Virus record (IMG/VR): IMGVR_UViG_2875722834_000006
DNA length: 42,851 bases
Reading direction: 5' to 3' (one strand)
From: a virus
Lineage: Duplodnaviria; Heunggongvirae; Uroviricota; Caudoviricetes
The position numbers and the translations under genes were made by a program. Position 1 is the first letter of the stretch, and every line of letters starts with the position of its first letter. Shown in pieces: positions 31,828 through 41,407 of this stretch. The notes beneath the pieces were generated by a model. The model was not told the origin of the DNA. It saw only the letters and a list, made by a program, of their open reading frames with translations, and made no database searches.

Positions 31828-33154
31828 TGACGGCCCCCTGCATGCTGTTGAAGAGACCACCAGCGGTCGTGATAATTTCACTCGTCGGCATACGTTCGAG
31901 CCACAGCTGGTTGATATTGGCTTTCAGCTTGTTCTGCTGCGAAACAGGTAGAGCGTCAGCCCCTTCAATCTGGTTAAACACCAGTCCAACCTCAAGAGGC
32001 CAAACGCGCGATTCGTTTAACGCCTTGTCCTTTGATTCCTGCGTCTCACGGACATGGGCGCGGATCCCCCGAATATTTGACCATTTGGCTTTATCCAGGC
32101 TTTCCATGGTCGCGATGAATTCACTGTGGTTAATGCCGTATTCTTTCGCAGACTCAACGGCAACCGTGCGTAACCGCTCTGACATGTCTTGTTTCACGTC
32201 ATCGCTATCAAAGGGCAATGTTTCCAGCCATGCATTAACACCCACCAGGATGCTCTCGCTGATCAGCTTTTTCGCTCTGTCGATCGTCAGCGGTGAAACA
32301 TTGGTAAATTCAGGGTTTTCCAGAGAGTCGGCAGCCCAGGTATGACCAAACTTTGACTCGCTGAAGGTGTACTCGTCTTTCTTGCCGAACGCCGCGACAA
32401 CACAGGCCCAAGCCTCTACACCGCTGGTTTCCAGAATGGCTTTTTGGGTTAATGGCAGTTCTGCCTCTGATTTCTCCGGCACTACCTCAGCGTCCAGCTC
32501 CGGCGCCGCATCAGTTTGCGTTCTTCCCACGGCAAATTGGGCCAGCGACATCGCAGCACGGCCTTTGGCCTCCAGGTCGGTGCGGTTGATGTAACTGAAA
32601 CGCTCACCCCGCCATGTTTTGTCGAAGACCACGATAGCGCCAGCAAAAAATGCGCTGGTGGGCTGCTGCTTTTCGTCTTTCGGCACGAACCATGTAGGAA
32701 GATCGAAACCAATTCGGCCACGGATGAATGTGACGTGATCTGCCTCTACCGGCCACCACGTTTCACTCGTCGCAGACTTAATGAGAAAAACGTACCGACC
32801 ACCCTTTTCTCGCATGGCCATAGCGTGGTTAATGATGTGGGTCATTCCGGTAACGGCCTGCTTGTCGTGGTACTGAGAGCGGCTGTAAGGCGGGTTGCCA
32901 AACCCGGCACCACCGAGTTCTGCCAGCCGCTCTGACCAATCCTGCATCAGGGCATTATCTTCAGCCGTGTACCATGCTGGGCACTTCGCGTTGCTGTCGT
33001 CGGCAAAAAGGTCCAACACCAGAGGGCCGAACATCGCATTGATCCCCCAAAACAACAGATCCGGAGTGCGCCATTGATCACCGACCTCTTTCAACTCGTG
33101 TGCTGGTTTTGAACGGAGTTCAGCCAGTGCACGGCAGTATTTATTTTCCATCAT
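31820..33154 (-). CDS. Phage-type DNA N6-adenine methyltransferase (Dam family) with about 250-aa C-terminal extension of unknown function
   Basis: N-terminal DQWRTPDLLF and NPPYS motifs characteristic of phage Dam family; long uncharacterised C-terminal half. Confidence 0.7.
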   Translation of the reverse strand: MMENKYCRALAELRSKPAHELKEVGDQWRTPDLLFWGINAMFGPLVLDLFADDSNAKCPAWYTAEDNALMQDWSERLAELGGAGFGNPPYSRSQYHDKQAVTGMTHIINHAMAMREKGGRYVFLIKSATSETWWPVEADHVTFIRGRIGFDLPTWFVPKDEKQQPTSAFFAGAIVVFDKTWRGERFSYINRTDLEAKGRAAMSLAQFAVGRTQTDAAPELDAEVVPEKSEAELPLTQKAILETSGVEAWACVVAAFGKKDEYTFSESKFGHTWAADSLENPEFTNVSPLTIDRAKKLISESILVGVNAWLETLPFDSDDVKQDMSERLRTVAVESAKEYGINHSEFIATMESLDKAKWSNIRGIRAHVRETQESKDKALNESRVWPLEVGLVFNQIEGADALPVSQQNKLKANINQLWLERMPTSEIITTAGGLFNSMQGAVNA

Positions 33155-34005
33155 CCTCTGAACCCCTCTGGAATCTTGCTATCAACCGGACCGAACTTCA
33201 TCGGGTCATGTTTCTTTTCACCCCAGCTGTCACGCGGTGGCCGCCCCTTCTTGTCCCAGCGGATCCCGCTTTGCAGATAACCTTCAAATTTTTTCGGACC
33301 GAAGAGCGTTTCAGGACGCATGTACTGGTACTGCACGTCATTGCCGTTCCAGTGCTCATGCTTAAGGTCGATCACCAGCTGTAAGTCGCTAACGGTGTAA
33401 CCTTCACGCAGACGAGCACGGATGTTTTCCAGAGAAGTTTTTGATTTTTGGTATCGTGAGCCACTAACCAGGTTCAGATGATTCAGAACCAGGATGGCGT
33501 TATCGGTGATCATCACTTCAGGGTCTGGTTGCGGCGCAACCGGACAAGAAGGTTTTTTAACTGATGGATCAGTAGTTGTATTTACTGACGGATCCCCCCC
33601 AGATTCTGACGGGTGAAAACCGCCTTTTTCATCGTTTTTTGATGCCTCAGATTTTGACGCGTCGGTTTTTGAGGCATCAGATTTTGATGCGTCAGAATCT
33701 GACAGGTGAGAAAAGGCAGCAGCCTGCAATTTAGCAACATTGAGCTGGTAAACGTTCGATGCATTTCGGTTGCCTTTACGGCGCTGCTGGCGGGTTAACC
33801 AACCATCTTTTTCCAGCTGAGATATGGCTGTACGAACCGTGCTCTCACCAGCACCAATCTGGCGCGCGATGGTAGCGATGGAAGGCCAGCTAACCCCTTC
33901 ATCACTGCTGAAGTCTGCCAGACGCGCCATGATGGCAACGCTGGATAGCTTCATGCCAGAAGCGGCACAAGCATCCCAAACGTAACCCGTTAATTTAGTG
34001 CTCAT
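33151..34005 (-). CDS. Replication initiator-like protein (N-terminal winged HTH, central SDASK repeats, conserved phage C-terminal domain)
   Basis: HTH segment GVSWPSIATIARQIGAGESTVRTAISQLEKDGWL; DNA-level iteron-like repeats inside gene; position after cro/CII-like genes. Confidence 0.65.
   Translation of the reverse strand: MSTKLTGYVWDACAASGMKLSSVAIMARLADFSSDEGVSWPSIATIARQIGAGESTVRTAISQLEKDGWLTRQQRRKGNRNASNVYQLNVAKLQAAAFSHLSDSDASKSDASKTDASKSEASKNDEKGGFHPSESGGDPSVNTTTDPSVKKPSCPVAPQPDPEVMITDNAILVLNHLNLVSGSRYQKSKTSLENIRARLREGYTVSDLQLVIDLKHEHWNGNDVQYQYMRPETLFGPKKFEGYLQSGIRWDKKGRPPRDSWGEKKHDPMKFGPVDSKIPEGFRG
33640..33710. repeat. Iteron-like repeats (GCATCAGATTTTGA(C/T)GCGTC and inverted partner) inside initiator gene; candidate ori
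   Basis: Repeated TCAGATTTTGA units at about 33647 and 33678 with flanking inverted TTTTTGA(T/G)GC(C/A)TCA. Confidence 0.45.
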
Positions 34006-34346: not shown

Positions 34347-34952
34347 TTACTTCTCCATACAAGATTTGTCTGCCACGACGCCCGGAGCTGCACACTCGCG
34401 GGCGTCACCTTTTTCCGGCGCACAAAACACACGGAAAAGCAGCGTCAAATGTTCCTGCCACTTAGCCATCACCTGATAGCTGTTCTCTTCAATCTGGGCG
34501 CGTTCCTGAGCATCAATAACGCCGTCAGCGGTAGCTTTGCGAACGTATTGCGAATGCCTGCCGATCCACTCCACTGACTCCATAAGACGCTGGTTGATGT
34601 CACCGTTCTCTATTTCTTCAACGTCAGCCAATGGCACGAAAACACCGTTCGAGTGACGTGCAATAGCGTTCGCTATGTGGTTTGAACCACCAGCACGTTG
34701 AAGCACCATCGCCCAACCGAGCTGGAAGATCTGATCGCCATCGGTACGCAGCCGGTTAAACAGCGCGTTCTCGGTCACACCCAACCACTCAGCAGCTTCT
34801 GAATATCCGCCAGGCAGCTCGGTGATCGTTTTTTTGATTGCGGCCACCAGCCAGGCTGGCTGCTTATCTACTTTCCATTCAGGTTCTATACCCACGGCTA
34901 GGTCCTCCCTTCTGTGGTTATTTCTGATCGCTTGGCGATGTATTCTTGCCAT
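34347..34952 (-). CDS. CII-like / phage regulatory protein (HTH-containing)
   Basis: Predicted HTH (YSEAAEWLGVTENALFNRL); position directly downstream of cro; start ambiguous (GTG 34979 or ATG 34952). Confidence 0.4.
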   Translation of the reverse strand: MARIHRQAIRNNHRREDLAVGIEPEWKVDKQPAWLVAAIKKTITELPGGYSEAAEWLGVTENALFNRLRTDGDQIFQLGWAMVLQRAGGSNHIANAIARHSNGVFVPLADVEEIENGDINQRLMESVEWIGRHSQYVRKATADGVIDAQERAQIEENSYQVMAKWQEHLTLLFRVFCAPEKGDARECAAPGVVADKSCMEK

Positions 34953-35133
34953 AACGTTCTGGGTTAAATTCCAGTTCACCAGCAGTTCGATACGCAGCTT
35001 CAGCAGCTCGTCCTTTTGGGATTAAGCGTCCGGGGCGGTTACGCCACTGGTAAACGGCCTCACTGGTGATGCCAAAAAATTCGGCAACTTTTTCAGTGCT
35101 GCCGAAATGTTGTTCAATCTCGTCGGTTGTCAT
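34918..35133 (-). CDS. cro: Cro-like repressor (Cro/YdaS-type HTH)
   Basis: 71-aa HTH protein (KVAEFFGITSEAVYQWR), AAGGAGG RBS, divergent from cI-like gene across operator region. Confidence 0.7.
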   Translation of the reverse strand: MTTDEIEQHFGSTEKVAEFFGITSEAVYQWRNRPGRLIPKGRAAEAAYRTAGELEFNPERYGKNTSPSDQK

Positions 35134-35232
35134 GAAGCCTCCTTAGCTAAGTTTGGTTAGATATTAATAACCAATCTAACTTTGGTCAATAAAAACTAAG
35201 ATTACTTAGTCTTTTTTAAACTTGGTGCTTTC
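35134..35232. promoter_or_regulatory. Right operator/promoter region: PR (-35 TTGACC, -10 TAATAT on minus strand) with three CTAAG-containing operator repeats
   Basis: Minus-strand TTGACC-17bp-TAATAT upstream of cro RBS; repeats CTAAGTTTGGTTAGAT (35147-35162), ACCAATCTAACTTTGGT (35171-35187), CTAAGATTACTTAG (35196-35209). Confidence 0.65.
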
Positions 35233-35859
35233 ATGGAAACGGTTGGTCAGCGCATTAAAGCCCTACGTAGGGTTACAAGAACCTCTCAAAAAGAACTGGG
35301 TAAGTTCTGCGGGGTTAGTGACGTAGCGGTGGGTTATTGGGAAAAGGATGTGAATATCCCAAACGGTGAATCGCTGGTTAAGCTGGCGAAATTCTTTAAC
35401 ACATCAATAGATTACATTCTTTACGGCACTGAATTTGAAGGCACCCTCATAACTAAAATGAGGCGTGTCCCGGTGATTTCATGGGTTCAAGCTGGGCAGT
35501 TCACGGAATGTAAAGCCGCTGATTTGTTCAGTGATGTCGATAAATGGGTTGAAACATCACTTCGCATTGGGGATAACTCGTTCGCTTTAGAGGTCAAAGG
35601 GGATTCAATGACCAATCCAAATGGCCTCCCAACAATCCCTGAAGGGGCAACCGTTATTGTTGATCCAGATGCCGAACCCCTTCATGGCAAGATTGTGGTT
35701 GCGCGTCTTGATGGCACTAATGAAGCGACTGTTAAAAAACTTGTCATTGATGGCCCACAAAAATTTTTAGTGCCACTAAATCCTCGCTACCCCAACATCC
35801 CGATCAATGGTAACTGCCTCATTATTGGCGTTGTTAAAGGCGTTCAGTACGAACTCTAA
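35233..35859 (+). CDS. cI: CI-like repressor (N-terminal HTH, C-terminal LexA/S24 peptidase-like autocleavage domain)
   Basis: HTH (TSQKELGKFCGVSDVAVGYWE) and S24 signature (EVKGDSMTNP...K) with divergent cro. Confidence 0.85.
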   Translation: METVGQRIKALRRVTRTSQKELGKFCGVSDVAVGYWEKDVNIPNGESLVKLAKFFNTSIDYILYGTEFEGTLITKMRRVPVISWVQAGQFTECKAADLFSDVDKWVETSLRIGDNSFALEVKGDSMTNPNGLPTIPEGATVIVDPDAEPLHGKIVVARLDGTNEATVKKLVIDGPQKFLVPLNPRYPNIPINGNCLIIGVVKGVQYEL

Positions 35860-35884
35860 TCCCTTCCCACTCTTCCTCTAAGCA

Positions 35885-35945
35885 TCAAGCTAAGTTTAGT
35901 TTGATGTTTTCACTTGACCAGAAAACTAAGTTAAGTTAGATTTTT
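35885..35945 (+). promoter_or_regulatory. Left operator/promoter region: PL-like promoter (TTGACC 35914-35919, TAGATT 35937-35942) with operator repeats CTAAGTTTAGTTTGAT and CTAAGTTAAGTTAGAT
   Basis: Same CTAAG-type repeats as in OR; 17-bp spacer promoter overlapping second repeat. Confidence 0.55.
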
Positions 35946-36486
35946 TTCTGTCGACACCAAACCACCGCGCCTGATGTGGTTAAAAGCAGGCCAAAGCAAT
36001 AAGAAGTGATCCCTGTTCTGGCTGCTCACTTTCCCCTTGAGGGTGACAGCCAGCTTTTTAAGGGCACAACAGGCGAGAGCATTGCTGATTATCGGACTGC
36101 GTGAGACGCGACGCGGTAAAGCAGGTAAACAGTGCTCTCACCGTTGTGGTAATGCGGCTCTGCGCACGTGACGAGGCCAACAAGTTTTTATTTCAACTTT
36201 TGAAATGAATACGTTTCTTGTGGTGTAGCGTCGCCGGTTCTGGCCGGTCCGGCAGGTGGAGGCACCACCGCCACAACAACATCATTGCTGTGTGTAGTCT
36301 TTGCCCATCACATCGGTGGGCACCTTTTTTACACAAGAGACAAGGGCATCACCGGGCGACGGGCTCATTCCCCAATCCACCCGGGCAAGAGGATAGCGAT
36401 TGCAGTCGCCGACAAATGCAGGTGCCCTTCTCTGTTGTGTATGGAGAAAGTTCGGCGGTGGCAGCCGCCATAACGAGGGTAAAACC

Positions 36487-36858
36487 ATGAGTAATGACCG
36501 CATGACCGTAGTGCCCGACTTTTTGGGCGAGCTGGATGCCGGTGTGTTCATGAACAAAATCGCGGCAGCACTTAACACCACCGCGCTTGGCGTTCTGAAC
36601 AACGGCAACAAAGGCAAAGTAGTCCTCACCTTTGATTTTGAGCGTATGGGTAATTCCGTTGAAGAGAAGCGCGTCAAGATCAAGCACAAGCTGAACTACA
36701 GCACCCCAACCCCGCGCGGTAAAGCCTCCGAAGAGGACACAACCGAAACCCCTATGTGGGTTAACAAAGGCGGGAAGCTAACCATCCTCCAGGAGGATCA
36801 GGGGCAACTGTTCGGGATCACCGGCGCGGTGGACGGAAAGCTTAAAGCGGCTCAGTGA
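36487..36858 (+). CDS. Hypothetical early protein (123 aa), YfdP-like position
   Basis: ATG at 36487 with GAGGG RBS; first recognisable ORF of leftward early operon. Confidence 0.5.
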   Translation: MSNDRMTVVPDFLGELDAGVFMNKIAAALNTTALGVLNNGNKGKVVLTFDFERMGNSVEEKRVKIKHKLNYSTPTPRGKASEEDTTETPMWVNKGGKLTILQEDQGQLFGITGAVDGKLKAAQ

Positions 36859-40834: not shown

Positions 40835-41407
40835 ATGAACGACTTAATGATTGACCTCGAATCAATGGGGAAAAAGCCAAACGCGCCGATCGTCTCAGTT
40901 GGTGCTGTCTTTTTTAACCCTCAAACAGGTGAACTTGGCCAAGAATTCTATACAGCCGTCTCGCTTGAAAGCTCAATGGATCAAGGCGCGGTACCGGATG
41001 GAGATACGATTCTTTGGTGGCTAAAACAAAGCCCTGAAGCGCGCTCAGCTATCTGCGTTGATGATGCGATGCCTATCACTGATGCACTGTCGGAACTTAG
41101 CCATTTCATTCACCGGCATGCATATAATCTCAAATACATGAAGGTCTGGGGTAACGGGGCCACCTTTGACAATGTGATTTTGCGCGGAGCTTACGAACGC
41201 GCCGGACGCATTTGCCCGTGGGAATTTTGGAACGATCATGATGTACGAACGATTGTTACCCTCGGTCGCAGTGTTGGTTTCGATCCGAAGCGTGACATGC
41301 CTTTCATTGGCGATGTTCACAACGCCCTGGCTGATGCGCGCCATCAGGCAAAATATGTGTCAGCAATTTGGCAGAAAATTATCCCTGCCACCAGCACCAA
41401 CGAGTAA
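40835..41407 (+). CDS. 3'-5' exonuclease, DnaQ-like (DEDDh)
   Basis: N-terminal MIDLES (D-x-E), downstream acidic residues and HNALADA (H-x4-D) motif. Confidence 0.6.
   Translation: MNDLMIDLESMGKKPNAPIVSVGAVFFNPQTGELGQEFYTAVSLESSMDQGAVPDGDTILWWLKQSPEARSAICVDDAMPITDALSELSHFIHRHAYNLKYMKVWGNGATFDNVILRGAYERAGRICPWEFWNDHDVRTIVTLGRSVGFDPKRDMPFIGDVHNALADARHQAKYVSAIWQKIIPATSTNE

Follow-up and report, generated by a model that had tools for sequence, protein, structure and literature searches.

We analyzed the leader region downstream of the promoter PL (positions 35946-36486) in a 42,851-nucleotide stretch of viral DNA, hereafter called the window (Caudoviricetes, IMG/VR record IMGVR_UViG_2875722834_000006). 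The window belongs to a lambdoid phage or prophage. Its close relatives are Escherichia phage LLS and the phages Eeyore and Flotzy, whose leaders are 88%, 94% and 87% identical to that of the window. A gene for a CI-type repressor lies upstream of PL. The first convincing gene downstream starts with the ATG at 36487, where the initial annotation had also placed it, and encodes a YfdP-family protein (phrog_204, E = 1e-41). That annotation had described the leader as poor in open reading frames (ORFs), rich in GC and hairpins and without a convincing N-like gene, and had suggested a put-like antitermination RNA, another non-coding RNA or a small protein. The observation proved to be real, but it was partly mis-described and its framing in terms of put and N found no support. 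The best explanation of the leader is a composite, modular non-coding RNA locus rather than a gap without N. It contains a cloverleaf-shaped RNA domain, supported by covariation, followed by a near-exact copy of the active 3' domain of RprA, a stress-response small RNA (sRNA) of the host, with its terminator. Both are conserved in many phages, in agreement with the suggested non-coding RNA. For the coordinates of all features see Table 1.

The RprA-like cassette and the cloverleaf domain

At the Rfam gathering thresholds the whole window gave no match. A permissive Rfam scan placed RprA (RF00034) at 36194-36331 with 41.5 bits (E = 0.0014) and an almost perfect 3' half. This is below the gathering score of 70 for full-length RprA; the relatives of the window reach 45-63 bits. 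A run of 26 consecutive nucleotides, ATTGCTGTGTGTAGTCTTTGCCCATC, is identical to E. coli rprA and is followed by a different loop, an identical GGTGGGC and a T-run. The terminator hairpin GCCCATC-ACATC-GGTGGGC with its T6 (36303-36330) had been named in the initial annotation along with GGTGG-AGGCA-CCACC (36256-36270), and both are in place. The 5' hairpin of RprA and its central hairpin, which pairs with rpoS and hdeD, were not found in the leader, and CCCCUGAGUGAAACAACGA is absent. The RprA model puts its upstream hairpin positions on the arms of the cloverleaf, with low posterior probability and a 42-nt insertion. RprA reportedly has two separate seeds for rpoS and ricI. Its gene is chromosomal, between ydiK and ydiL, and has an Rcs-dependent promoter, whereas the element described here is located in a phage PL leader.

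RprA is processed by RNase E to RprAproc, an active form made up of its 47 last nucleotides, which coexists with the full-length RNA and regulates on its own (PMC9262595). A shorter form of RprA results from an RNase E cut within a loop (PMC6202311). The phage element shares the build of RprAproc, a conserved single-stranded stretch joined to a Rho-independent terminator (T2, also called by the terminator scan), and the core conserved among phages begins where RprAproc begins. As judged by the sequence signature alone, an Hfq-binding module is present, with UAGUCUUU, an 8-bp GC-rich stem and U6. The hypervariable linker of 4-6 nt in front of the element is a candidate site of cleavage by RNase E or by the 3'-trailer machinery.

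A scan of IMG/VR contigs that demanded an exact 23-mer found this core in at least 120 viral contigs. Among the matches listed, no viral contig has the host-type upstream sequence, which is present at the E. coli rprA locus, and the core is found in 24 sequence contexts, which vary in their first genes. For 104 instances among the matches listed at least 1200 nt of upstream sequence were available; in 101 of these a CI-type repressor (helix-turn-helix plus peptidase S24) lies upstream on the same strand and ends 319-1776 nt before the core. Depending on the group, the first downstream ORF is YfdP-like at a distance of ~185 nt, or unrelated with a length of ~300, 326 or 107 aa. Some phages have a conserved 5' hairpin just 38-41 nt before the core, so that a PL-started RNA of ~96 nt is predicted. 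Other phages have the core behind a small ORF, as its 3' untranslated region (3'UTR). The cassette is also present in lytic N4-like Erwinia phages, where it comes after the thymidylate synthase gene, as well as in a jumbo phage of Erwinia and in Klebsiella, Enterobacter, Pantoea and E. coli phage-plasmids. In phage Ea9-2 (L132, 1195-1245) seed and terminator directly follow thymidylate synthase, and a small coding sequence (CDS) for a "hypothetical protein" is annotated immediately after them; in the jumbo phage pEa_SNUABM_1 (L133, 1003-1065) they directly follow a hypothetical protein gene. Literature searches on RprA with phage or prophage, on the seed sequence and on tRNA-like elements with lambdoid phages found no description of phage copies, which is not proof of novelty; a preprint on the Pas sRNA concerns other loci.

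To counter the bias of an exact-seed search we also used a search anchored on the cloverleaf, which yielded 128 instances. The cloverleaf is followed by the exact core in 55 of them. In about 35 of the 128 the seed is kept but another terminator (GGCGGTACCAG...CTGGTACCGCC) comes after it, and the remaining instances have unrelated tails. Across 48 unique seed-bearing tails the 16-mer UGCUGUGUGUAGUCUU is conserved to 0.90-1.00 per position, compared with 0.4-0.7 for linker and terminator. The terminator stem varies with compensatory changes; its fifth base pair is A-U, C-G, G-C or U-A in different phages. The terminator loops differ from host rprA, but the seed does not. Since the seed is nearly constant while the terminator varies, the single-stranded stretch is what is preserved. 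This suggests that the stretch base-pairs with a conserved partner and does not just serve termination.

The cloverleaf consists of five helices, namely an 8-bp closing helix (GUUGUGGU/GCCACAAC) and the four arms that it encloses. Its last arm, GGUGG-AGGCA-CCACC, abuts the 3' strand of the closing helix in the fashion of a tRNA T-arm. In an alignment of 23 sequences with less than 93% identity (A3), 98.1% of the cells are paired and eight pairs show compensatory changes. None of 500 shuffles reached the observed value, and slid controls gave 28-62%. The minimum free energy structure of the single sequence reproduces the fold. A covariance model of the domain (R2) scores 136.6 bits at its position in the window.

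The window cloverleaf was not detected as a tRNA: ARAGORN found none in the window, and there was no match to RF00005 at E <= 10 in 35800-36600. At eight related loci ARAGORN found no tRNA except for one genuine tRNA in L005. Sister units that start with the same GUUGUGG come near to the tRNA model (gathering score 29), with 27.6 bits in L005 and 25.2 bits in L033. PGAP annotates the unit in L005 as "tRNA-Met, 129 nt", and the unit in L033 directly precedes an RprA-like core. The more tRNA-like units of L033, L011 and L004 were not reached by R2 at E <= 0.1, so their kinship with the window cloverleaf is judged by inspection only.

R2 also matches P1-like plasmids, Klebsiella Lastavirus phages and, weakly, phage mEp460, where the tail after the cloverleaf carries a different seed. 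Copies outside lambdoid PL leaders are found in a P1-like plasmid (L208, 1428-1553 and 248-382) and in Klebsiella phage SopranoGao (L209, 1508-1646). The cloverleaf of the P1-like phage-plasmid adjoins tRNA genes and is located just upstream of a Tad2 anti-Thoeris gene; that of the Lastavirus phages lies near one end of the genome. The tails behind both are unrelated to RprA. The PL leader of mEp460 (L210, 850-1010) and the P1-like plasmids (L208, 1205-1330) have another unannotated, conserved non-coding module in common (GGTTGTAACACGGCGTNTGGCACATGCGTCGTTAGCGGTCTGG...CAGGTAGCCGGAATGTGCAAG).

Other modules of the leader and flanking genes

We accepted the sigma-70-like promoter as PL because it is set among operator-type repeats that also occur at the cro promoter. 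Two such repeats (35888-35908 and 35924-35944, direct-repeat family D2) flank or overlap it, and both resemble the OR repeat 35145-35165 at the divergent cro promoter. It is the only sigma-70-like promoter predicted on the strand of the leader. The leader follows PL, as the initial annotation had stated. In an alignment of five relatives (A1) homology begins at 35961, even where repressor and promoter are different.

Table 1. Features of the PL leader and its upstream flank (positions in the window)
Feature	Position	Strand	Evidence or remark
CI-type repressor gene	35233-35859	+	upstream of PL
PL-like promoter, sigma-70-like, TTGACC-17-TAGATT	35914-35942	+	promoter scan
5' stem-loop ACCAC-N10-GTGGT, followed by UAAAAG	35961-35980	+	alignment A1
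Terminator-like hairpin T1 (CTGGCTGCTCAC...GTGACAGCCAG + CTTTTT)	36018-36059	+	fold
Long hairpin, replaceable block; 3' arm includes GCTCTCA	36075-36139	+	fold, z = -3.7
Cloverleaf RNA domain, ~135 nt	36143-36277	+	alignment A3 and RNAalifold
Hypervariable A/U-rich linker AACAUC, before invariant AUU	36278-36283	+	conservation per position
RprA 3'-domain (RprAproc) mimic, 47 nt: single-stranded seed UGCUGUGUGUAGUCUU (36286-36301), Rho-independent terminator T2 (stem 36302-36322), U6	36284-36330	+	
5'UTR of the yfdP-like gene, structured: 36331-36350 pairs with 36421-36440 in a long-range helix of ~20 bp that encloses hairpin 36349-36386	36331-36440	+	
Hairpin near the ribosome-binding site (GGCGGUGGCAGCCGCC), Shine-Dalgarno GAGGG, approach to ATG 36487	36454-36486	+	alignment conservation

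The leader as a whole is strongly structured and folds better than 100 of 100 dinucleotide shuffles (z = -3.32). The description as GC-rich is not borne out: its GC content is 53.8%, that of the window is 51.4%, and a value as high or higher is found in 32% of windows of equal size. The 5' stem-loop recurs in 49 loci, and in 47 of these an RprA-like core is found 38-646 nt downstream. T1 is nearly invariant in alignment A1 and in ~40 loci. The terminator scan predicted no terminator at 35859-35946, between the stop of cI and the start of the leader. Because none is found between the cI stop and this hairpin, T1 may also, as a putative terminator, end the cI transcript.

The block of the long hairpin is occupied by a different sequence in LLS, Flotzy and Ec_mussel, which also forms a hairpin (GAAAGCGCACTCC.../...GGAGTGCGCTTCC). 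The GCTCTCA at 36133, which had been taken for a boxA-like motif, is present in the letters of the sequence. It belongs to the 3' arm of this replaceable hairpin, however, and it is not a conserved boxA, because unrelated hairpin sequence replaces its block in LLS and Flotzy.

The long-range helix of the 5'UTR covaries in 13 sequences with less than 95% identity (RNAalifold; GGGCA/UGCCC changes to GAGCA/UGCUC). Segment 36326-36386 is common at ~87% to SfV, mEp460, Stx2c phages and ST64B-like phages. The hairpin next to the ribosome-binding site is kept in alignment A1 and in the 13-sequence 5'UTR alignment.

Conserved segments of the leader hold two copies each of the motif CACAAC(A) and of its complement (U)GUUGUG (36064-36071, 36146-36151, 36272-36277 and 36432-36439), which allows alternative long-range pairings. 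CACAACA is also the target consensus of the R1 region of GcvB. In an E. coli ST536 prophage with a 97% identical leader (L129, 1740-2100), an insertion of ~330 nt carries a second hairpin-plus-GTTGTGATGAATTGCAGC unit, so leader RNA modules duplicate or insert as cassettes. In a prophage of E. coli strain 44 (L004, 2560-3340), the RprA-core leader after the repressor gene contains at least eight copies of the small hairpin motif (C/G)GGGAAAGACC(G/C). The motif resembles GNRA-like loops of the boxB type and may be a multi-site protein-binding or nut-like array.

Downstream of the yfdP-like gene follow YfdQ (DUF2303) and a YfbR-like nucleotidase. The early-left operon also encodes a protein with an Rv2179c-like 3'-5' exoribonuclease domain (40835-41407, plus strand; Pfam E = 7e-72). 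This enzyme could bear on the trimming of RNA 3' ends, as the operon leader is full of processed-looking RNAs. On the other side of the repressor gene, the O-like replication gene (33151-34005, minus strand) contains four direct repeats of the TCAGATTTTGA type with a spacing of 15 nt (33632-33706), which look like origin iterons.

Proposed function and alternative explanations

Based on the identity to rprA, the structures with their covariation and the conserved position across phages, all of which are observed, we propose that the PL transcript gives rise to a terminator-ended sRNA. It would mimic processed RprA and act on host targets, and it would also attenuate early-left transcription. 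We assign this proposal a probability of about 60%. Once infection or induction has lifted the repression of PL, many transcripts would stop at the terminator of the cassette; read-through of the cI transcript may add to the cassette RNA. The cloverleaf and the A/U-rich linker could direct an endonucleolytic cut by RNase P, RNase E or the tRNA 3'-trailer machinery. The cut would free a short sRNA of the Hfq type, which would pair with host RNAs normally under the control of RprAproc. The phage could thereby impose part of the Rcs/RprA output without envelope stress. At the same time T2, together with T1, would attenuate transcription into the early-left genes yfdP-yfdQ-yfdR.

Several points weigh against this proposal. 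Expression, processing, Hfq dependence, action in trans and the identity of the targets are all things that we infer. In lysogens PL is kept off by repression, and none of the predicted promoters is specific to the sRNA. A CC sets the U-tract off from the terminator stem in the window, so that termination may be weak. The cloverleaf is not recognized as a tRNA, so a role in processing is an analogy. The apparent invariance of the core is inflated by the exact 23-mer demanded in the first scan, and the anchor-based check was also pre-filtered to <= 3 substitutions. The direct targets of RprAproc itself are poorly defined, and its effect on narP is thought to be indirect (PMC9262595). The best phage-internal target of the seed in an RNAduplex search (-26.2 kcal/mol) falls among the values obtained with 20 shuffled seeds (-23.3 to -27.6), and the window contains no complement of the seed beyond the element itself. 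No phage partner stands out, and a host partner is therefore likelier. Finally, the conserved position would also result from a terminator or attenuator that acts in cis only.

More tentatively, the RprA 3' domain may be a mobile sRNA cassette that phages have spread and that would switch on the RprAproc branch of the envelope-stress response of the host during lytic growth. Temperate lambdoid phages would have put it at the first early-left terminator, often fused to a tRNA-shaped processing domain able to carry other seeds, and lytic phages into a 3'UTR. Chromosomal rprA and the phage cassettes would then be of common ancestry, with either one as the donor.

The main rival, which appears unlikely to us, is an action in cis only, in which T1 and the terminator of the RprA-like element would hold both early-left operon and cI read-through tightly off by early termination or attenuation, in the manner of tL/timm. 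The RNA would be functionless and the likeness to RprA the baggage of a captured host terminator. Such a role would fit the two terminator-like hairpins in series ahead of any gene, the lack of a terminator between the cI stop and T1, and the constant location of the element after cI and ahead of the first early-left gene (101/104 among the matches listed). A terminator, however, needs no invariant single strand of 16 nt that stays fixed while stem, loop and terminator type change. The same seed and terminator also occur in lytic N4-like and jumbo phages, which lack the PL/cI logic.

It is improbable that the leader contains a new antiterminator RNA acting in cis, other than that of HK022, in which the invariant 5' block (35961-36016) or the cloverleaf would modify RNA polymerase to pass T1 and T2. 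The terminators do stand ahead of every early-left gene, phages with different immunity regions have the 5' block in conserved form, and the authors who described LLS speculated likewise for its leader (PMC12315714). An N homologue is also lacking in leader and early-left operon: no N-like match was found by Pfam and PHROG among the leader ORFs on both strands, as the initial annotation had supposed, and there was none among ten further ORFs of the early-left and cII regions. A conserved boxA/boxB nut site was likewise not found in the leader. The HK022-like reading can be judged by its own RNA, a two-stem structure with GAACGGC...CGGUCGG...GGAUGA...CAAUG. We built a put covariance model (R1) from the genome records of HK022 putL, HK022 putR and the putL-like RNA of HK639; it scores these sites with 99, 64 and 92 bits, respectively. 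R1 had no match in the leader, at most 10 bits (E = 0.2) elsewhere in the window and nothing above 10 bits in four related leaders. No repeat, inverted ones included, is common to the leaders of PL and PR. The cII-like ORF (34347-34979) begins within the cro ORF (34918-35133), so there is no room for a right-hand put site. The cloverleaf moreover occurs outside the PL context in P1-like plasmids and Lastavirus phages.

A non-canonical, N-like small protein can hardly be reconciled with the leader. No ATG-initiated ORF in 35946-36486 exceeds 24 aa, which bears out the description as ORF-poor. The sole long ORF (90 aa, 36218-36490) has an Arg/His-rich N-terminus, but it starts with TTG, has no ribosome-binding site, spans the terminator and is broken in frame by 4-nt and 3-nt indels between close relatives. 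The homologous leaders of Eeyore (L127, 1387-2027) and Flotzy (L128, 1387-2013) do carry four to five small "hypothetical protein" CDSs; these calls differ, however (90 aa in Eeyore versus 65 aa in Flotzy). The TTG/GTG ORFs of the leader have no Pfam or PHROG family except for one of 31 aa, which belongs to phrog_33599 (unknown function) and sits on the conserved, non-coding segment behind the terminator (36301-36396). No conserved small ORF was found, and both this ORF and the CDS calls in Eeyore and Flotzy are probably spurious, laid over conserved RNA elements. We rejected the idea of an attP-type remnant, in which the phage carries the 3' end of rprA so that integration restores the host gene. 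It is common for a temperate phage to bring along the 3' end of a tRNA or sRNA gene for integration. LLS carries 29 bp of ssrA to this end, but its attP lies elsewhere and matches ssrA (PMC12315714). The element of the window sits between the early genes and cI, ~5 kb away from the integrase end; its terminator loops differ from host rprA while its seed does not, and it is present in lytic phages.

Comparison with known systems

If the proposed sRNA exists, the "N-less" lambdoid leaders are RNA loci, to which the tRNA-shaped domain adds a possible processing or scaffold module. It would also offer a direct handle on the processed form of RprA, which is poorly understood. The idea of mimicry is readily testable, because LLS grows on E. 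coli K-12. A practical problem remains for annotation, as gene callers put probably spurious small CDSs over conserved RNA elements.

The element shares with RprA and RprAproc of E. coli and Salmonella (RF00034) the seed, the first bases of the terminator stem and a Rho-independent terminator with a U-tract. It differs in the lack of the 5' and central hairpins and of an Rcs-dependent promoter, and in its place behind a cloverleaf in a PL leader.

The put RNA suppresses terminators via the zinc-binding domain of the β' subunit of RNA polymerase. Like put in HK022 and HK639, the window leader is a structured RNA downstream of PL in a lambdoid phage without N; it resembles put neither in sequence nor in structure and has no right-hand copy in the window.

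For the arrangement of cloverleaf and sRNA there are analogies in 3'ETS-leuZ of E. coli and in mascRNA/MALAT1, where tRNA processing releases linked RNAs. In these a tRNA-shaped fold stands directly beside a functional RNA whose end is set by processing enzymes, as might be the case here. The window cloverleaf, in contrast, is not a detectable tRNA, and its sister units alone reach 25-28 bits compared with the gathering score of 29.

Phage-encoded sRNAs as such are already known, with DicF, StxS and AgvB/AsxR as examples. A longer transcript is processed to yield DicF. It is a 53-nt, Hfq-dependent sRNA of the repressor-controlled dicB operon in the lambdoid prophage Qin (PMC5069750). The likeness lies in an sRNA embedded in an immediate-early, repressor-controlled operon of a lambdoid element, with DicF acting on host mRNAs. 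The seed of DicF is its own, and DicF is not known to resemble a host sRNA or to have a tRNA-shaped domain upstream; it is experimentally established, whereas the phage element described here is a computational finding.

StxS is a short PR' transcript of Stx phages that ends at tR' and acts as an sRNA (PMC7547250). It is a by-product of a promoter-proximal phage terminator, an sRNA acting in trans while the terminator gates downstream phage genes, as is proposed here for the PL leader. Unlike the latter it starts at the late promoter PR' and is made constitutively in lysogens, and its sequence is different. Its terminator is antiterminated by Q; no antiterminator is known for the PL-leader element.

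The anti-sRNAs AgvB and AsxR (PMC4104026; RF02702) combine a scaffold with an exchangeable pairing region, comparable to the cloverleaf with its different tails. Membership in the AgvB family was considered and rejected, with 14.9 bits against a gathering score of 56, just the terminator shape and CACAACA in common and a different genomic site. AgvB and AsxR are located at the moron site of PR' and mimic mRNA targets to sponge host sRNAs. The element in the PL leader, on the other hand, copies the host sRNA itself, with a seed that phages of unrelated types keep nearly letter for letter at a set regulatory position. A phage copy of the seed of a core host sRNA would, if our proposal is correct, represent regulatory mimicry instead of sponging.

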